From Candidatus Jorgensenbacteria bacterium RIFCSPLOWO2_01_FULL_45_25b (GTDB lineage: Bacteria; Patescibacteriota; Minisyncoccia; UBA6257; GWB1-50-10), in contig MFKK01000037.1 of the NCBI GenBank assembly GCA_001781035.1, positions 1 to 57,984 of the forward strand: DNA of 57,984 nt, given 5' to 3'. Position numbers and translations under genes: made by a program. Below are positions 45,739 through 52,464 of the stretch, piece by piece. Under the pieces are notes generated by a model, which saw only the letters and a program-made list of their open reading frames with translations, made no database searches and was not told where the DNA came from. The stretch's first letter is position 1. Every line of letters starts with the position of its first letter.

Positions 45739-47838
45739 ATGTTATACTATATGTTAATGAGGATTTTGAAGGACAATAGATTTTTATTTATTATCGTAGG
45801 CATTTTGCTTGTTGTGCCGTTTTCCGGTTTTGCCCAGTCTTTGGATTTGTCGTCAGTTATAAAACAGCTTCAAGAACAGATTGAGGCGTTGCAGAAGCAG
45901 GTTGTTTCACTGCAATCCCAGCTTCAAGTCGCGAAAGAAGAAATAGCGGAGGTAAAGACAGAATTAAAGCTTACTAATTCTCTCGTTCGTGGCTCATTTG
46001 GTGATGAAGTAAGAGCTTTGCAGGAGTTTTTGAAGCAGTTCCCAGATATTTACCCAAGCGGACTCGTAACTGGTTATTTTGGTCCGCAAACGGAACTGGC
46101 TGTCAAGAAGCTTCAGGAGAAACAAGGAATTGAGGCGGTCGGCATTGTCGGTCCCAAAACGCTTTCTAAAATTAACGAGCTTATTGCTTATGGAGCGGGC
46201 ACCTCGGGCGTGGTTCCGCCCGGACTTCTCATAGCTCCCGGTATTCAGGCGAAGCTCGCGACTACAACAATTTTGATTGTAAGTTCAACCTCACCAAACA
46301 CGACGACCACACTTCCTGTTGTTGCGCTCCCCTTACCTTTGCCAGTGACAAGTTCAACGTCTCCATTTTCCACAACGACGACGCCTGTGGTAACGCCGGC
46401 ACCTGTTGTGACTTCAACTCCCGCGCCAGCTACACCATCAATAGCGCCCGTTTTTTCTGTAGCTTCGCCGGCAAGTGGCGCGACGTGGAATAAGGGCAAC
46501 ACCTACAGTATTCAATGGTCTAATACCGGTTTGGTTGTTTCTAATGTTAGGATTAGTCTTTACAAAAATGGCGCGACTTATTCGTCTGACCCATTTATTG
46601 CCATTGATGTTCCCAATAGCGGGAGTTATAGCTGGCAGGTTTTTTCCTCGTTATCCGACGACTCAAATTATTCCGTGAGAGTTTTTAATTCCGCCTATCC
46701 GAATAATTGGGGAGATAGCGGTTTGTTTAGTATAATCGCGACTACGACAGCAACTACGGCAACGACTACTACGTCAACGGCAACTACGACAACAACCACT
46801 ACGGCTACAACAACTACTACAACCACTCCGATTATTACCGTTACCTATCCCAACGGAGGAGAGACGCTGGGATATTTGAGCTACGGCTTCTATTACAATT
46901 CAAGTAATGTTAGCAGAGTTGGTTTTAAGGTTCTTAAGGGTTCGCAGACTGTTTATGAGAGCACTACTCCGACCACAGCCGGAACGAGATTATCTTTTTC
47001 GCCGTTTCCCGATAACTCCGCGTGGTCCGCGTATCAATCGGGAAGTGATTATAAAATAAGAGTTTTTGATTGGGACAATTCAAGCGTGTATGACGACAGC
47101 AACAATTATTTTAGCGTAGACGTGACCGATCCCGTTGTTTCCAACCTCTCCGTTTCACTAATTACCGAGAACTCCGCCGTTATTACTTGGACAACCGATG
47201 AGCCCGCCAACTCGCAAGTAAATTATGGGAGCACATCCTCAAATTGGGCACTGACTCCCATAGATTACACTAAGGTTACCTCGCATTCCGTTACGCTTAC
47301 CGGTTTGACAAGCGGTACGCTTTATAAGTATAGAGTTATGTCAACGGACGACTTGGGAAATACAACTCAAACTCCAACATATCCTTCGGAGTACACGTTT
47401 ACGACTACCGCTATAGCCGCTTCTGTCACGATCACTTATCCCAATGGCGGAGAAACATGGGAAACGGGTCAAAACTACACTATTACTTGGAATTCAACTG
47501 GCAATATCAATGGCGTACTGTTATTTTTAGCCAATGAAGCAGGGCAGGTTTTTGTTACAAATTTAGTTAATGTCTACGGCAACCCCGGCAGCACTCAATG
47601 GGGCGTTTCTTCTTCTTTCTTAGGACGTTATAGAATATTAATCCACGGTTGCTCGGCTTTAAACTGCACGGTTGGCAATACTAAAAGCACTGAAAGCAGT
47701 GTTGCTAGCGATTTAAGTGATAGCTATTTTAATATAGTTTCCGCAACAAGTTCCGCAAACCTTGCCAATTCTAATTTGGCTTCACTTTTGGAATTACTTG
47801 CCTCGCTTCTTCAAAATCTTCAGCAGACGTTGAGATAG
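45739..47838 (+). CDS. Secreted surface protein: PG-binding domain, Thr/Ser-rich linkers, Ser-Thr-rich-like repeats and an Fn3-like domain
   Basis: Signal peptide; GDEVRALQEFL...GYFGPQTELAVKKLQ; repeated YPNGGET...W motif; AVITWTTDEPANSQVNYG. Confidence 0.7.
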   Translation: MLYYMLMRILKDNRFLFIIVGILLVVPFSGFAQSLDLSSVIKQLQEQIEALQKQVVSLQSQLQVAKEEIAEVKTELKLTNSLVRGSFGDEVRALQEFLKQFPDIYPSGLVTGYFGPQTELAVKKLQEKQGIEAVGIVGPKTLSKINELIAYGAGTSGVVPPGLLIAPGIQAKLATTTILIVSSTSPNTTTTLPVVALPLPLPVTSSTSPFSTTTTPVVTPAPVVTSTPAPATPSIAPVFSVASPASGATWNKGNTYSIQWSNTGLVVSNVRISLYKNGATYSSDPFIAIDVPNSGSYSWQVFSSLSDDSNYSVRVFNSAYPNNWGDSGLFSIIATTTATTATTTTSTATTTTTTTATTTTTTTPIITVTYPNGGETLGYLSYGFYYNSSNVSRVGFKVLKGSQTVYESTTPTTAGTRLSFSPFPDNSAWSAYQSGSDYKIRVFDWDNSSVYDDSNNYFSVDVTDPVVSNLSVSLITENSAVITWTTDEPANSQVNYGSTSSNWALTPIDYTKVTSHSVTLTGLTSGTLYKYRVMSTDDLGNTTQTPTYPSEYTFTTTAIAASVTITYPNGGETWETGQNYTITWNSTGNINGVLLFLANEAGQVFVTNLVNVYGNPGSTQWGVSSSFLGRYRILIHGCSALNCTVGNTKSTESSVASDLSDSYFNIVSATSSANLANSNLASLLELLASLLQNLQQTLR

Positions 47839-47980
47839 CTTGTTTTTGAAACTTATTTCTTAGGAATTCCTCCTCCTCTTCCGTCCCGCTAAGCGGGACT
47901 TTTTCGGAGTCACGGACTTTTCTTTCTCCCCGTTAAGTGGGACGGAAAAGTTCCGTTCAAAACCCTTTTCCAGCATAGTA

Positions 47981-48023
47981 AATACAAAACAAGCGTATCC
48001 TTGTGATACGCTTGTTTTGTATT
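47981..48023 (+). terminator. 19-bp-stem hairpin terminator
   Basis: aatacaaaacaagcgtatc-cttgt-gatacgcttgttttgtatt. Confidence 0.7.
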
Positions 48024-48324
48024 GGCTAGGGGTGCTGGACGAAGTTAGAACCCTTCTCCTGCAAGGAAAATCGTCTTTTTCATACAGCTTTGTTCTTTGA
48101 TTTTACCGTATTGCAGGATTCAGTAGTAATTGCCATCGACAGGACTTGAACCCGCAACTATTGACTTTTTTTGACAGTTGCTATAATTATGGTGTTCATT
48201 GAAAATCAATGAGGCGAGCATTTTGGACGCCAAATACTTGGTTTCTAAAGTGCTCGTCTCAATTTCTGAGACGGCCGTAGTCCCGCACGATGCGGGATAA
48301 TTCCAAACCATAAGGAGGTGTGCG

Positions 48325-49077
48325 ATGAGAAAGTCGCATACTGCTGGTTGGGCCTCGGATGCCCCGACGCCTGCCCAGCTCAAAGAGCTGTTTTCCCAGA
48401 TTGCGAGCGGCCGTATCAACAAGCGGCGGCTCCAGACCTTCCTGCGAAGCGGGATGGTTTTCAAGAACGAGGAGATTGCTCGCCTGATTCTTGGAGACGA
48501 CATCGTCTTCCCAGACGAAGTCGCTGAGAGTCGCGGGCTCTCCTACACCGACGCCCAGCTCAAGCACTTTGCGGAGATGATGCCTTCGGAGGAGGTGCTT
48601 CGCTGGTGCAAGACCAACGGCTACGCCATTGTAGCGGGGCCCCCGTCGCCGATGGGACTACTAGAGGTTCGAACTTTCAAGTCCGAACACTTTTACTCGA
48701 AGGGTGGCGGGTGGTATGGGGGGGGTCACGCCTTCGGCAACGGCGACAGGGCCGAGACCGAGTGGCTCGCCATCCGCAAGGAGCCCGTTCCGAACTCTCT
48801 CAATCAGAGCTGGAGCGAGCAACTGCGGCTTCTTTCGAAGGACGAGCAAGTTCCGAACACTGGCGAGATGAGCTGGTTCATCACGACCTTCTACGAGGTG
48901 CGTGGCGTGCGGCTCTTCGAGGAGGTCTATGTTCGGACCTCCTCTGTCACTTCGGGCGGCAGCCGTGTCCTTGTCGGCCGCTTCGACGAGGTCGGGCTCT
49001 ATGTCAGCGGCTGCTGGGACGGCGGCCGCCGCTACAGCTTCGGTTTGGCCGCCTCTCGGAAAAGTTCTGAACCTTGA
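48325..49077 (+). CDS. DGR variable (target) protein with C-terminal VR
   Basis: Strong SD aaggagg. It is GC-rich, and the C-terminus RVLVGRFDEVGLYVSGCWDGGRRYSFGLAASR aligns to the TR translation. Confidence 0.85.
   Translation: MRKSHTAGWASDAPTPAQLKELFSQIASGRINKRRLQTFLRSGMVFKNEEIARLILGDDIVFPDEVAESRGLSYTDAQLKHFAEMMPSEEVLRWCKTNGYAIVAGPPSPMGLLEVRTFKSEHFYSKGGGWYGGGHAFGNGDRAETEWLAIRKEPVPNSLNQSWSEQLRLLSKDEQVPNTGEMSWFITTFYEVRGVRLFEEVYVRTSSVTSGGSRVLVGRFDEVGLYVSGCWDGGRRYSFGLAASRKSSEP
48946..49059 (+). repeat. DGR variable repeat (VR)
   Basis: 114 nt aligning gap-free to 49427-49540, with 20 differences, all where TR has A. Confidence 0.9.
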
Positions 49078-49108
49078 AGTCTTGAGGGCTTGACCCTCTT
49101 GAATACTT

Positions 49109-49142
49109 GAGCTTCCGTCCGATTTTTTTTCGGCGGAAGCTC
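49109..49142 (+). terminator. Hairpin/terminator downstream of VR
   Basis: gagcttccg...cggaagctc with an inner tccga-T7-tcgg, followed by a T-run. Confidence 0.7.
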
Positions 49143-49426
49143 TTTTCTTTTGTTTTTCAAAAAGTTATTCTGTAAATGTTCTGCTAATGCAGGTGCGGCT
49201 ACGGTTTCACCTCGCAGGACATCCCATCTTTGAGATTTCACCAGAGTATCGTCGCCTACGGGTTACGATAGCGCGTGAACCAGACGGAGATAGAACTTCT
49301 TGCTCATCTTTAGTGGAGATAGCGAAAACATCGCTTGCTCCCGAATAAAATACAGGAAAGAGAGGATATAAGCCTTTGGCAGTAAACCTCAATTTCCAGT
49401 GCCACGGACGAGGATGGGCAAACCAT

Positions 49427-49540
49427 GTCACTTCGGACGGCAACCGTGTCAATGTCGGCAACTTCGACGAGAACGGGCTCAATGTCAACAACTACTGGGA
49501 CGACAACCGCAACTACAACATCGGTTTGGCCGCCTCTCGG
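49427..49540 (+). repeat. DGR template repeat (TR)
   Basis: Adenine-rich (AAC codons) counterpart of VR. Confidence 0.9.
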
Positions 49541-49590
49541 CAGTCATTCTCCGTCAATGTGAAATACCCTCGGAAAGGAGGGTATTTCAT

Positions 49591-49941
49591 TTAACGCTCT
49601 TTAGTTGACCTAATCCAACCACCAAGCTGTCTTCCGATTTCATCAACCGTCTCCTGCCACTTAATGTATTTGTTGACATCAATAACTTTTACTTCTTTAC
49701 AAAGCCGTAAGAACACTCGCAGAAAGTTTAGTTTGACGCTGGTTTTTTCTAACACGGGTAGTTTTTCGGTCTTTGAAAGCTGACTTGCCCAAAGCAAATT
49801 TTCCAATACATCTAAAGTAATGTTTTCGCATCTCTGCCAAAGCGTGTGGCGGTCTTGTTTCTTAACATTGTTTCGGTAAGCATAAAACTCCTTATACAGC
49901 TCGTAAGTTATTTTGAAAATTGGTATATCAAAATCATCCAT
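49591..49941 (-). CDS. avd: Four-helix-bundle protein, Avd-like (accessory variability determinant)
   Basis: 116 aa with a helical pattern ending ...DEIGRQLGGWIRS, typical of the 23S-rRNA-IVS/Avd family. It lies next to TR and RT. Confidence 0.7.
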   Translation of the reverse strand: MDDFDIPIFKITYELYKEFYAYRNNVKKQDRHTLWQRCENITLDVLENLLWASQLSKTEKLPVLEKTSVKLNFLRVFLRLCKEVKVIDVNKYIKWQETVDEIGRQLGGWIRSTKER

Positions 49942-49944
49942 ATT

Positions 49945-50994
49945 ATGAAAATCTATAAAAATGTTTTTGAAAAAATCATCTCACTGGAAAATCTGTTTTC
50001 GGCGTGGGATAAGTTTAGTAGCGATAAAAAGAAAAAACGGGATGTTGTTGAGTTTGAATGGGAGCTTGAGCAAAACATTTTTCAGCTTCATCGGGATTTG
50101 AAAAATAAAAAGTATAAGCACGAAACATATACTTCGTTTTATATTCAAGACCCCAAACAGAGGCACATTCACAAAGCTATAGTCAGAGATCGAGTGCTCC
50201 ATCACGCAATTTTCAGCGTGTTGAATCCTATTTTTGAGCCGACATTTATCGCACATTCGTTGTCGTGTCGTGTCGGCAAAGGAACGCATAAAGGAGTAGA
50301 TATTTTGGGCAGCATAACGAAGGCAGTCAGCCACAACATTCATAAGTCTTGTTTCGCTCTTAAATGCGACATTAAGAAATTTTTTGGGACAGTTGACCAT
50401 GCTATCCTTATGACCCTGCTTACAAAACGAATCAAAGACGCCGATGTGATGCTGGTTCTTAAAGAAATCGTAGAGAGTTTCAAATCCGAATACTCTAATC
50501 TTTTTCAAGCAAAGGGACTGCCCATCGGTAATTTGACTTCCCAGCTTTTTGCTAATATCTATCTCAACGAGTTTGACCAATTTGTTAAACATCGCTTGAA
50601 GATTGAAAATTACGTTCGTTATACGGACGACTTCGTAATAATTTCTGACAGCAAAACTTTTCTTGAAAATCTTATTGAACCAATCAGAAAATTTTTGCAC
50701 GATAGGCTGGCTTTGGAACTTCATCCCAGAAAAGTCAGTATCCGCAAATTGCACTGGGGCGTAGATTTTCTCGGCTATATTGTTCTCCCACACCATCGCT
50801 TGTTGCGGAGAAAAACTAAACAACGAATTTTGAGGAAACTGCATAAAAGAGTTTCTGAATACAAAAGCGGTATTATTACGAAACAAACACTGGAACAATC
50901 TCTCCAGTCTTATCTCGGTGTTCTTTCTCATGCGAATACTCATAAATTTGGCGATGAATTAAAAAATCAATTCTGGTTTTGGTTAAGTGAATAA
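49945..50994 (+). CDS. DGR-type reverse transcriptase
   Basis: IGNLTSQLFANIYLNEFD (the [LIV]GxxxSQ hallmark) and YVRYTDDFVII (YxDD). Confidence 0.9.
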   Translation: MKIYKNVFEKIISLENLFSAWDKFSSDKKKKRDVVEFEWELEQNIFQLHRDLKNKKYKHETYTSFYIQDPKQRHIHKAIVRDRVLHHAIFSVLNPIFEPTFIAHSLSCRVGKGTHKGVDILGSITKAVSHNIHKSCFALKCDIKKFFGTVDHAILMTLLTKRIKDADVMLVLKEIVESFKSEYSNLFQAKGLPIGNLTSQLFANIYLNEFDQFVKHRLKIENYVRYTDDFVIISDSKTFLENLIEPIRKFLHDRLALELHPRKVSIRKLHWGVDFLGYIVLPHHRLLRRKTKQRILRKLHKRVSEYKSGIITKQTLEQSLQSYLGVLSHANTHKFGDELKNQFWFWLSE

Positions 50995-51205
50995 AGTTAC
51001 TCCACGCCTCAACTCACTATTGTTTAGAATTACCAGAAGCCAAATTTGTTGCTGGTGGTTGGGGTTTCTTAACTTCTAACGAGTTTCTGAACCTTTGCCA
51101 CCAGCGACAAATGAAGCTCGTAAAATTGCCGCAAGGTTAGAGCCTGCGAAAAAGCCAGTGAATAAAAAGAAAATCGGGCAATTGTATGCCCGAAGTCCAG
51201 TAATG

Positions 51206-51276
51206 CTGCCGGGCAGGGATTCGAACCCCGGTACTCGCCTCCAAAGGGCGATGTCCTACCGCTAGACGACCCGGCA
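51206..51276 (-). tRNA. tRNA-Gln (anticodon TTG)
   Basis: U1-A72 acceptor TGCCGGG/CCCGGCA, D arm GTCT-AGCGGTA-GGAC, anticodon loop CTTTGGA, T loop TTCGAAT, discriminator G. Confidence 0.85.
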
Positions 51277-51315
51277 ATAAGTTCTTTTTACCATGTTTTT
51301 TTGATTTTGGGAATT

Positions 51316-52464
51316 TTAAGCGGTTTTTTGGTTTAGACTTTCAATCAGAGCAATTTCTAGCGGGATAATGGGGAAGTTACTGTATCTCATCTGACCGTAC
51401 GCTTTCAGGAGATTTTTTAGGGTTTCAATGTGGGAGTTTTTGAAAAGTTTGGAGTGTCCCTTAATTTTTTGGAGGTGCTCTCCGACGAGTTCGTTTTCAA
51501 GATGAACGGACATCATCGGGTCAAACTTAAGAACCGCCGTGTTGCGGAAGTGAATGATGAGGTCTTTGGTTAGCTGGACGAGATTCGTTCCCTCCTCCGC
51601 TATGTTTGAAAGATAATCAAGCGTTCCTTCTAGCTCCCCTTTCAGGATTTTTTCCGCGAAGTTCGCTATTTTATGAAAGCCTACTTTGCCGAGCGTGCTT
51701 TCAATCGCTTCTGTTGTGATTTCGTTTCCTTTTAGGCTAATCATCTGGTCAAGAAGGGATTCGGCGTCGCGGAAGCTTCCTTCGCCGGAGGAGGCGATCA
51801 GCTCAAGCGCGTCATCGGATATTTTTATTTTTTCCGCGCTCGCGATTTTCTTTAACTTCTCAATGATTATTTTCAGCGTCGGGTGTTTGAACTGGAACTT
51901 TTGCGTGCGGGAGGCGATTGTCGCGGGAATTTTTTCTATTTCGGTTGTCGCGAGAATGATGATGACATACGAGGGGGGCTCTTCCAGCGTTTTCAAAAGA
52001 GCGTTCGCGGCTTCTTTGGTAAGCTGATGCGCTTCGTCAATGATAAAAACCTTGTGTTTTAAAACAGAGGGCGAGACGCGGACGTGTTCTTTTAGAGCGC
52101 GCATCTCATCTATGCCTCTGTTTGAGGCGGCATCAATTTCAATGACGTCCAATGCGTTTCCGATATCAATAGATTTGCAGGCGTGGCAGGCGTTGCACGG
52201 CTCACTCCCGACGCTACGGTTGGGATTTTGACCCCCTTTGGACATCGGAGCCTCCGCTAATTGTTTTTGGCGCGCTTCACAGTTCGCGATTTTCGCGATA
52301 AGGCGGGCAATTGTTGTCTTCCCCGTACCGCGGGGGCCCGAAAAGAGATAGGCATGGGCGATTCTATCTTGGCGCGCGGCTTCCTGTAGAATTCGCACGA
52401 TGACTTCGTGGCCGATGAGATCGGCGAAAGTGGCGGGGCGATATTTTCTGTATAAAGCTAACAT
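51316..52464 (-). CDS. dnaX: DNA polymerase III subunit gamma/tau
   Basis: LYRKYRPATFADLIGHE, GPRGTGKTT, IDEAHQLT and the zinc module CNACHAC. Confidence 0.9.
   Translation of the reverse strand: MLALYRKYRPATFADLIGHEVIVRILQEAARQDRIAHAYLFSGPRGTGKTTIARLIAKIANCEARQKQLAEAPMSKGGQNPNRSVGSEPCNACHACKSIDIGNALDVIEIDAASNRGIDEMRALKEHVRVSPSVLKHKVFIIDEAHQLTKEAANALLKTLEEPPSYVIIILATTEIEKIPATIASRTQKFQFKHPTLKIIIEKLKKIASAEKIKISDDALELIASSGEGSFRDAESLLDQMISLKGNEITTEAIESTLGKVGFHKIANFAEKILKGELEGTLDYLSNIAEEGTNLVQLTKDLIIHFRNTAVLKFDPMMSVHLENELVGEHLQKIKGHSKLFKNSHIETLKNLLKAYGQMRYSNFPIIPLEIALIESLNQKTA

Follow-up and report, generated by a model that had tools for sequence, protein, structure and literature searches.

Anatomy of a diversity-generating retroelement in a Candidatus Jorgensenbacteria contig and its possible control layers

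Introduction

The prototype of the diversity-generating retroelements (DGRs) is that of Bordetella phage BPP-1, in which the target gene mtd with its variable region (VR) is followed by avd (accessory variability determinant), the template region (TR) and the reverse transcriptase (RT) gene brt; to our knowledge, no other DGR has been solved structurally. Many of these elements are known from CPR bacteria, and CPR DGRs were reportedly treated by Paul and colleagues in 2017. The DGRs of Patescibacteria/CPR form 'DGR clade 2', whose targets have no recognizable transmembrane or conserved domain (Roux et al. 2021, PMC8144416). As for the RNA of the BPP-1 DGR, its Sp region contains the primer strand, the cPRT Stop strand and a stem-loop (Handa et al.).

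Here, we describe a DGR on a contig of Candidatus Jorgensenbacteria bacterium RIFCSPLOWO2_01_FULL_45_25b, a public Rifle groundwater CPR contig that has been in the public record since 2016; the whole stretch analyzed, of 57,984 nt, is called the window. This source agrees with the original prediction, which had pointed to CPR genomes as frequent carriers of DGRs and had proposed a complete DGR, and all of the defining features tested (RT, Avd, the adenine pattern of TR and VR, and a VR at the C-terminus of an ORF) support that identity. Thus, we hold it to be almost certain that positions 48161-50994 of the window are a complete, functional DGR of the Patescibacteria (CPR) type. Given that this Rifle CPR contig was already public and that a clade of CPR DGRs has been described, the element is a known kind of system, ordinary for the CPR group. 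Our analysis covers its anatomy, the adenine-specific pattern, the homology of RT and Avd, the conserved structure of the TR RNA and the polymorphism restricted to the VR.

Results

The element runs in the order target, TR, avd (minus strand) and RT (plus strand). It shares with the BPP-1 DGR an RT homologous over its full length, the IGxLTSQ and YxDD motifs and an Avd, as well as differences confined to TR adenines, a VR at the 3' end of the target, identical GC-rich ends of the repeats and a hairpin downstream of the VR. In contrast, the BPP-1 element is phage-borne whereas this one is chromosomal in a Patescibacterium, and the BPP-1 order (target, avd, TR, RT) differs from target-TR-avd-RT with avd on the opposite strand. 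Moreover, the target has no detectable sequence similarity to Mtd, no signal peptide and no phage tail-fiber context. With DGR clade 2 the element agrees in its CPR groundwater host, its cellular rather than viral nature and its domain-less target; membership in this clade fits by host and target properties, and nothing we found contradicts it.

The target (variable protein) gene occupies 48325-49077 on the plus strand and, according to the ORF listing, encodes 250 residues (GenBank OGG39718.1, 'hypothetical protein'). The VR (48946-49059, plus strand; codons 208-245) lies at its C-terminus, exactly where the original prediction had placed it, and has an ungapped match to the TR at 49427-49540 on the same strand. 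The recomputed pairwise alignment reproduces the predicted one: 114 nt without gaps and with 20 mismatches; counting the T shared at 48945/49426 extends the repeat to 115 nt. The copies lie in direct orientation 481 nt apart, with 83% identity, and their similarity collapses directly beyond both edges of each interval. At every mismatch (20/20) the TR base is an adenine, with 13 A>G, 4 A>T and 3 A>C changes; 20 of the 29 TR adenines are substituted, while all 85 non-adenine positions are identical, and the chance of all 20 mismatches falling on adenines is about 1e-15 (hypergeometric). The codons quoted in the prediction are correct, namely AAC AAC TAC in the TR against AGC GGC TGC in the VR, and GAC GAC AAC CGC AAC against GAC GGC GGC CGC CGC. 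All 29 TR adenines, and with them all 20 mismatches, occupy codon positions 1 or 2 of the target frame, and ten TR codons are AAY. Read from the sequence, no substitution at a TR adenine can reach a stop codon, and the 19 codons able to vary allow about 1e17 protein variants.

The VR closes with a GC-rich, IMH-like segment at 49040-49059 (plus strand; TCGGTTTGGCCGCCTCTCGG), the same 20 nt that end the TR at 49521-49540, as had been predicted; VR and TR diverge immediately after TCGGTTTGGCCGCCTCTCGG. Since the two ends are identical, a difference between IMH and IMH* is not visible here. By analogy with BPP-1, homing is probably guided by this shared 20-nt end. Scanning both strands of the window for the non-adenine positions of the TR, at full length and in halves, returned no further VR beyond the known VR and the TR itself.

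The original prediction had called the element 'active or recently active', and two independent assemblies of the same organism (L047 and L048), which match the window over 4.7-8.2 kb, bear on this. The comparison is one of consensus contigs from different samples, not of reads; L047 ends before the TR and L048 has no TR. Relative to the window, L047 carries 19 substitutions across 4,869 nt; 16 fall within the VR, each of them at a TR-adenine position. L048 carries 11 in 4,735 nt, every one (11/11) in the VR at a TR-adenine position, with no other difference over 8.2 kb. There are at least three VR alleles on identical N-terminal 195 residues, the sole difference outside the VR being R196W (SNP 48910 C>T). 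Contigs that are otherwise identical and carry VR alleles differing only at TR adenines require very recent homing, and so, as far as consensus contigs can tell, the element is, or recently was, active. One could instead regard the locus, with its TR/VR pair and genes, as the fossil remains of an element that has ceased to mobilize information and whose VR differences arose long ago. Such a reading can draw on the consensus nature of the comparison and on L048 and the P0102 contig, where the VR is joined directly to the 3' flank of the TR and which, if this junction is real, would be a TR-less dead derivative. However, contigs alike over 4.7-8.2 kb have distinct VR alleles, with every difference at a TR-adenine position, the avd and RT reading frames are intact, and the non-adenine TR positions are still the same in the VR (85/85); we therefore give the fossil reading very little credence and retain that of an element active now or recently.

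The RT gene (49945-50994, plus strand) encodes an intact protein of 349 residues, with IGNLTSQ at 50524-50544 and YTDD at 50620-50631, so that both the position and the motifs named in the prediction stand. Its best solved relative is bRT of the Bordetella phage (PDB 8ub7; E 5.7e-45), matched over residues 3-343, that is, its full length, with IGNLTSQ aligned to IGSLTSQ and YTDD to YMDD. The best group II intron RT is about 20 orders of magnitude weaker (E 1.5e-25). At the family level, the protein matches Pfam RVT_1 (2.8e-23) and the phage RT family phrog_1423 (2.6e-110), and the best tblastn matches against phages are to RT genes from phages and archaeal viruses (35-40% identity). The avd gene (49591-49941, minus strand; 116 residues) is divergent from the RT gene, the two start codons lying head to head, 3 nt apart. 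It is recognized by Pfam bAvd (1.1e-15, 58.5 bits against a cut-off of 40), by the PHROG 'Avd protein of DGR' (2e-19) and by NCBIfam DivGenRetAVD (1.8e-21, 76.4 bits, just under the equivalog cut-off of 80), which substantiates the proposal of an Avd-like ORF between TR and RT; the minus strand is our addition to that proposal. An RT of another class (group II intron, retron or defense-associated RT) that merely adjoins the repeat is highly improbable. NCBIfam, which has no DGR RT model, gives as best match a group II intron RT/maturase, but with 155 bits against a cut-off of 300, and the PADLOC defense RT models match weakly. Against this class assignment, the full-length bRT match stands far above that to any group II, retron or Drt structure, the IGNLTSQ is of the DGR type, an Avd is adjacent, and a maturase or endonuclease domain, intron RNA domains and an Rfam match are all absent. 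The RT is thus best read as that of a DGR.

The same module, target-TR-avd(-)-RT(+), is found in about 20 related Patescibacteria loci. Their TRs are about 118 nt each, with 15-22 mismatches, nearly all at adenines, and avd lies between TR and RT on the minus strand in all of them. In the window, the RNA that carries the TR spans about 310 nt (roughly 49283-49590); it is structured, non-coding and conserved in 15 related loci. An 8-bp duplex closes this RNA across the TR, with the 5' strand GACGGAGA at 49283-49290 (plus strand) pairing with TCTCCGTC at 49548-49555. In most related loci the two strands are GGATAGAG/CTCTATCC, unlike those of the window, which shows compensatory changes relative to the family consensus. 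Cognate duplexes reach -13 to -15 kcal/mol; the window 5' strand reaches only -3 to -7 kcal/mol with the 3' strands of most other loci and -13.3 kcal/mol with that of L001, a locus that has the same variant.

Upstream of the TR, a leader domain (49299-49421, plus strand) is closed by a helix of 49299-49311 with 49406-49421. Although non-coding, it retains 74% mean column identity in the 15-locus alignment, and RNAalifold predicts 67 pairs, of which 30 show compensatory changes; among the covarying parts are the 12-bp helix that closes the domain and two hairpins inside it. Downstream, a spacer-like 3' segment (49541-49589, plus strand), conserved in 15 loci, comprises CAGTCA (49541-49546), the closing strand and a covarying 12-bp stem-loop (49560-49589), directly adjoining the stop codon of avd. 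With its pairing across the TR and its 3' stem-loop, the RNA resembles the cPRT Stop duplex and stem-loop of BPP-1; upstream of the TR, however, BPP-1 has the 3' end of avd, whereas the window has the structured, non-coding leader of about 140 nt. Inspection of the TR RNA identified neither the template:primer duplex nor the priming nucleotide or adenosine, and its promoter was not located. An Rfam search of 47500-51600, which included the RT-associated motifs of Weinberg 2017, returned nothing but a tRNA-Gln at 51206-51276. The least tenable alternative, an ordinary partial duplication that copied a 115-nt 3' fragment of the target downstream and diverged by chance or general mutational bias, would account for a direct repeat of this spacing (481 nt) and identity (83%), but it is refuted by the computed alignment (no mismatch at a non-adenine position; 20/20 differences at adenines of one copy only, P ~1e-15), by the recurrence of the pattern beside RT and Avd in about 15 related loci and by the location of the downstream copy within a conserved structured RNA, and we regard it as practically eliminated.

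Coming back to the target of this DGR, we found about 97 homologs; those with a taxon name are all from Patescibacteria, except one TPA record (P0049, labelled Thermodesulfobacteriota). The protein has no match in Pfam, NCBIfam, PHROGs, PADLOC or a PDB profile search, the Pfam search of 54 family members was equally empty, and among these 54 the FGE-sulfatase (PF03781) and DUF1566 (PF07603) domains are absent at E up to 1. The AF2 model is confident (pLDDT 89 for the full-length protein and 92.5 for the C-terminal domain alone) and places the VR in the last ~40 residues of a compact alpha/beta C-terminal domain. Against the PDB, Foldseek gives no significant match for the full-length model, although TvpA and TaqVP appear in the list. 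With the C-terminal domain as query, the first 30 matches consist almost entirely of FGE, pFGE, EgtB, SenA or TvpA-type folds, with weak scores (E 0.04-1, TM 0.4-0.57, probability at most 0.72); matches in BFVD are similar and weak. Modeling this domain alone raised the TM scores and left their significance unchanged. The target thus weakly resembles the DGR proteins with a C-type-lectin fold (Mtd, Treponema TvpA 2y3c and Thermus TaqVP 5vf4) and the FGE/EgtB family, with no sequence match in the PDB. [quoted passage not shown] The classical C-type-lectin-fold VR motif ends in ...GFRCA. The consensus of the target VR, ...RV.VG.F...GL.V...WDD.R....GLAASRK, ends differently.

The target gene lies in a cassette with elements of its own. 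A consensus scan places a putative promoter at 48161-48187 (plus strand), with TTGACT and the extended -10 TGCTATAAT at 48179-48187, and TGnTATAMT occurs in related loci at equal distance upstream of the conserved leader. At 48130-48165, what by eye seemed the 3' half of a tRNA, as a tRNA fragment or att site, was dropped, as ARAGORN and Rfam found no tRNA there. The structured 5' leader of the target mRNA (48194-48324), conserved in 20 aligned loci, carries the Shine-Dalgarno sequence AAGGAGG (48312-48318) and contains three hairpins, all on the plus strand: a long P1 (48210-48226 with 48245-48261), a short P2 (48255-48273), whose 5' arm is shared with the 3' arm of P1, and P3 (48282-48296). 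P1 and P2 are mutually exclusive. P1 is supported by covariation: 11 of its 22 pairs show compensatory changes across the 20 loci, it scores 0.341 for covariation, a value reached by 0/500 shuffles (0.199), and 88.8% of cells pair, against at most 53% with the partners slid. The leader has no Rfam match, and the covariance model R1 matches only directly upstream of target homologs, including sequences outside its building set and second paralogs. The leader may be switch-like, to judge from its alternative pairings, and found only on target-gene cassettes.

Downstream of the VR, an element at 49072-49112 (plus strand) has five CTTGA repeats around the 5-bp hairpin GAGGG-CTTGA-CCCTC (49084-49098). 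This hairpin lies 25 nt downstream of the VR, is absent downstream of the TR, and occurs in most related loci downstream of the target homologs, where its stem covaries (GAGGA/TCCTC, GAGAG/CTCTC); the DNA of 49035-49160 has a fold z-score of -4.3. By analogy, we infer that it is the counterpart of the target-recognition hairpin of BPP-1. An intrinsic terminator of the target gene, a 13-bp stem followed by a T run, occupies 49109-49142 (plus strand).

The composition of this cassette is unusual. The target has a GC content of 0.61 and a GC3 of 0.75, against 0.46 in the whole window, and across the family the cassette (about 1 kb from leader to terminator) stays near 57% GC, with GC3 of 0.6-0.8, at host GC contents of 0.33-0.60. 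Synonymous sites are far better conserved in the cassette than in the RT and avd genes that accompany it, a pattern suggestive of an exchange of cassettes or of nucleotide-level selection. Two other sources of the GC-rich target were discarded. Adenine depletion by mutagenesis of the whole gene does not fit, since family-wide the third positions are poor in both A and T, although in the window copy A3 is 0.07 and T3 0.18. Similarly, a recent transfer of the whole island does not agree with the RT and avd genes of the same loci, which are AT-rich and have diverged far more.

In sister lineages, a hypermutable (GA)n tract inside the RT coding sequence splits the RT; the RT of the window has no such tract. 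The length of (GA)n differs among otherwise identical populations and shifts the RT reading frame, and 16 of 18 tract-bearing RT genes are out of frame in the consensus. Programmed ribosomal frameshifting is an unlikely explanation for these split genes, because the tract gives offsets of both +1 and -1 that vary between identical populations. Phase variation by simple sequence repeats is familiar from the contingency loci of Haemophilus, Neisseria, Helicobacter and Campylobacter. The (GA)n of the sister loci is likewise intragenic, length-variable and frame-shifting; the gene affected is a DGR RT, in Patescibacteria. Judged by its sequence behavior, the tract may act in these lineages like a phase-variation ON/OFF switch for diversification. 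We found no report in the literature of such a phase-variation-like tract in a DGR RT.

Discussion

The way in which this element would work can be outlined with parts borrowed from Bordetella phage BPP-1, namely how synthesis is primed, how the RT misincorporates bases, which route homing takes and what the hairpins do. The structured non-coding RNA would carry the 114-nt TR, and RT and Avd would copy this TR into cDNA, placing random bases opposite the template adenines. The cDNA would then replace the homologous 114-nt VR at the 3' end of the target, probably guided by the shared 20-nt GC-rich end and the hairpin behind the VR. Since the TR would be left unchanged, the cycle could be repeated, and the resulting variants would be displayed on the surface of the small C-terminal domain of the target.

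As a DGR, the element adds little to what is known. Its value is that of a clean, compact and demonstrably active example whose parts can be mapped to the base. This base-level map, together with a TR RNA whose duplex and stem-loop mirror those of the solved DGR, recommends it for reconstitution in a system other than the phage model. Moreover, the target family, with about 100 members, offers a ready-made hypervariable domain that lies beyond the reach of sequence profiles.

We found no description in the literature of the regulatory and compositional oddities of this DGR family. It is conceivable, although we would sooner doubt it than assume it, that the lineage carries undescribed layers of control: a switch-like leader, a conserved cassette of stable GC content and, in the sister lineages, a (GA)n switch in the RT. 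If upheld, the leader RNA, the anomalous cassette and the repeat switch of the RT would bear on how a cell restrains and times a mutator. Hypermutation in these ultra-small bacteria would then itself be stochastically, and perhaps conditionally, regulated.

Adenine-specific diversification and recent activity

The repeat alignment put forward in the original prediction proved right in every detail on recomputation. The variable region (VR, 48946-49059) and the template region (TR, 49427-49540) of the diversity-generating retroelement (DGR) pair without gaps over 114 nt, or 115 nt counting the identical preceding base, and TR carries adenine at all 20 mismatches (13 A>G, 4 A>T and 3 A>C). TR holds 29 adenines, and the chance of all 20 mismatches falling on adenines is about 1e-15. 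The final 20 nt are the same in both copies, the likeness stops sharply at either boundary, and matching the non-adenine TR positions against both strands of the whole window returned no further copies beyond these two. All mismatches occupy codon positions 1 or 2 of the 250-aa target ORF (48325-49077, + strand; GenBank OGG39718.1, 'hypothetical protein'). Read from the sequence, TR comprises 10 AAY codons and 9 single-adenine codons with no third-position adenine, and no substitution at a TR adenine can produce a stop codon. In theory the element can encode 15^10 x 4^9, about 1.5e17, different proteins.

To follow activity we compared assembled contigs with the window, in place of read mapping. 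Another Rifle assembly of the same organism (L047) differs at 19 of 4,869 positions; 16 of these are in VR, and all 16 coincide with TR adenines. An independent ENA assembly (L048) shows 11 differences over 4,735 nt, every one in VR at a TR-adenine position, and equals the window elsewhere over 8.2 kb. Similarly, in the 90% identity cluster of the target the first 195 residues are identical, followed by R196W (a C>T SNP at 48910) and VR differences, which sit at codons containing TR adenines. The contig comparison shows that mutagenic homing was recent, in agreement with the earlier reading of the element as active or recently active.

In two independent assemblies, L048 (4621-4789) and the contig of the target homologue P0102, VR is joined straight to the 3' flank of TR (window 49059 to 49541). 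This junction drops 481 bp, comprising spacer and TR, and makes the target tail 12 residues longer (…SRQSFSVNVKYPRKGGYFI). It is either an assembly artefact of repeat collapse or a real TR-less variant with a 481-bp deletion.

The finding is real and correctly interpreted: a recently active, textbook-quality DGR of the CPR type. Exact protein matches assign the 57,984-bp window to Candidatus Jorgensenbacteria bacterium RIFCSPLOWO2_01_FULL_45_25b, part of a Rifle groundwater CPR data set, and Paul et al. 2017 reportedly mined Rifle CPR genomes. A DGR clade restricted to Patescibacteria, with targets lacking recognisable domains, has been described (Roux et al. 2021, PMC8144416). The element is of an already known kind, new or merely uncurated, and novelty, if any, is in the oddities of the family.

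Reverse transcriptase and Avd genes

The reverse transcriptase (RT) gene (49945-50994, + strand) encodes 349 aa, labelled 'reverse transcriptase domain-containing protein', with a Pfam RVT_1 match. Its best match among all solved structures is bRT, the RT of the Bordetella phage DGR (8ub7; E 5.7e-45, residues 3-343), while the best group II intron RT reaches 1.5e-25. The IGNLTSQ and YTDD motifs align with IGSLTSQ and YMDD of bRT, whose residues at these motifs contact template and dNTP (bRT-Avd-RNA structure paper). The protein also matches phrog_1423 at 2.6e-110, and its closest phage relatives by tblastn are RT genes of phages and archaeal viruses at 35-40% identity. Between TR and RT, the 116-aa avd ORF (accessory variability determinant; 49591-49941, - strand) scores above the cut-off for Pfam bAvd, reaches 76.4 bits with NCBIfam DivGenRetAVD (cut-off 80) and also matches PHROG 'Avd protein of DGR'. 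Both genes had been recognised from the sequence, as a DGR-type RT bearing these two motifs and an Avd-like ORF, and the database matches bear this out.

The start codons of avd and RT stand back to back at 49939-49947 with 3 nt between them (13 nt in the related locus L001). Because they are so close, the upstream region of each gene lies inside the coding sequence of the other, where its promoter and ribosome-binding sequences would have to be. Alternatively, a long TR transcript crossing avd in antisense may serve RT translation.

The target protein and its cassette

AlphaFold models of the target are confident (pLDDT 89 over the full length, 92.5 for residues 95-250). The N-terminal 95 residues are helical, and no signal peptide is evident from the sequence. 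The original prediction proposed examining the structure for a C-type lectin fold. The top Foldseek matches of the C-terminal domain are almost all C-type-lectin-like folds of the FGE/pFGE/EgtB/SenA/TvpA type, but none is significant (E 0.04-1, TM no higher than 0.57), and the full-length model likewise gave no significant match. By sequence, none of 54 family members matches Pfam FGE-sulfatase or DUF1566. A C-type-lectin-like fold of the modelled C-terminal domain is therefore plausible but unproven.

The target mRNA has a conserved, structured 5' leader of about 130 nt before the start codon (48194-48324), with a Shine-Dalgarno sequence after the hairpins. Half of the 22 pairs in its long hairpin (11) covary, and this hairpin exceeds all shuffle and slide controls; a second hairpin competes for and re-uses its 3' arm, and a third covaries too. 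All matches of a covariance model of the leader lie immediately 5' of target homologues, among them paralogues and loci outside model building, and the model scores far higher on the sense than on the antisense strand. No Rfam family matches the leader. Just past the target stop codon, five CTTGA repeats spaced 8-10 nt apart surround a 5-bp hairpin, GAGGG/CCCTC (49072-49112), and a strong terminator follows. The CTTGA element is conserved 3' of target homologues, even where no RT is nearby, and its stem covaries.

The GC-rich block of the locus is exactly the target ORF (GC 0.61, GC3 0.75), next to 0.375 for RT and avd and 0.46 for the window. Across the family (L001-L044), target GC is 0.52-0.64 in nearly all loci and 0.46-0.50 in three, with locus GC spanning 0.33-0.60. 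When species with unrelated flanks are compared, DNA identity across the 1-kb leader-to-terminator cassette is mostly 85-94% (80-82% in pairs with L021); for RT modules of the same loci it is mostly 70-79%, reaching 89% in the closest pairs. Within one subfamily, identity at four-fold sites is 0.68-0.83 for targets versus 0.31-0.45 for RTs, the closest pair (L015/L042) reaching 0.63 for RT. Candidate explanations for this composition and conservation are exchange of whole cassettes and selection acting at synonymous sites.

Between the upstream gene for a 699-aa threonine-rich PG_binding_1 protein and the target promoter lie two inverted repeats, at 47876-47950 (22-nt arms, 82% complementary) and 47976-48028 (24-nt arms, 92% complementary), and a tRNA-Gln gene (51205-51276, - strand) sits just downstream of RT. 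The repeats and the tRNA gene might delimit an inserted DGR block.

Structure of the TR RNA

Conserved non-coding DNA flanks TR in 15 loci, and 30 of the 67 pairs that RNAalifold predicts for it show compensatory changes. The predicted pairs include two hairpins and a 12-bp helix (49299-49311 with 49406-49421) that closes a leader domain about 120 nt long. Inspection and calculated duplex energies indicate that 8 nt directly 5' of this domain pair with a segment directly 3' of TR. The strands are GGATAGAG/CTCTATCC in most loci, and GACGGAGA (49283-90) with TCTCCGTC (49548-55) in the window. Cognate duplexes have energies of -13 to -15 kcal/mol; the window 5' strand gives -3 to -7 kcal/mol with the 3' strands of most other loci, and -13.3 with that of L001, which shares the variant. 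A conserved CAGTCA lies between TR and the 3' strand, and a 12-bp stem-loop with covarying sequence (49560-89) follows the duplex.

The TR of BPP-1, the phage of the prototype system, is framed by a primer strand, a 'cPRT Stop' duplex and stem-loops, and the same paper predicts elements of this sort for 207 DGRs from other phyla (bRT-Avd-RNA structure paper). The window has the same order: TR 3' end, short conserved segment, strand pairing upstream of TR, and stem-loop. The upstream partner is non-coding in the window; in BPP-1 it is the 3' end of avd. Nothing in Rfam matches the TR RNA, and inspection of this RNA did not reveal its priming nucleotide.

The target family and a variable tract in related RTs

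We collected about 97 target homologues, none with a Pfam domain; those with a taxon name are all Patescibacteria except one TPA record (P0049), labelled Thermodesulfobacteriota. RT and Avd adjoin the target in about 20 loci, always as a TR(+)-avd(-)-RT(+) block, which either follows the target, as in the window, or sits inverted upstream of it, placing TR and VR on opposite strands. The TRs of these loci are about 118 nt long, with 15-22 substitutions relative to their own VRs, nearly all at adenines. For many homologues, neither an RT nor an Avd gene lies within 6 kb (L004, L005, L007, L008, L011, L014, L020, L023, L025, L027, L032, L035, L038 and L044), and such RT-less targets retain the leader, CTTGA element and terminator. 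In some DGR loci there is a further target paralogue, diverged and preceded by a leader of its own: L001 (3875-4702), L028 (2873-3652) and L037 (4758-5531). RT-less targets and second paralogues may be diversified in trans, or they may be orphans.

Of about 19 related RT genes, 10 contain a (GA)n tract 11-33 nt long, as do 8 more from metagenomes (18 loci: L009, L012, L013, L016-L019, L022, L031, L039 and L049-L056). The tract is located in the loop immediately before the IGNLTSQ motif, equivalent to about 50470-50520 in the window, whose RT has no such tract. In 16 of the 18 genes it breaks the reading frame between the two halves of RT. Among five sister-sample contigs whose flanks are 99.5-100% identical, the tract measures 13, 15, 13, 25 and 13 nt; because lengths differ between such near-identical contigs, the tract is truly hypermutable. 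The literature searched gave no report of phase variation through such a tract in a DGR RT. It looks like phase variation, with slipped-strand changes turning the mutator RT ON and OFF.
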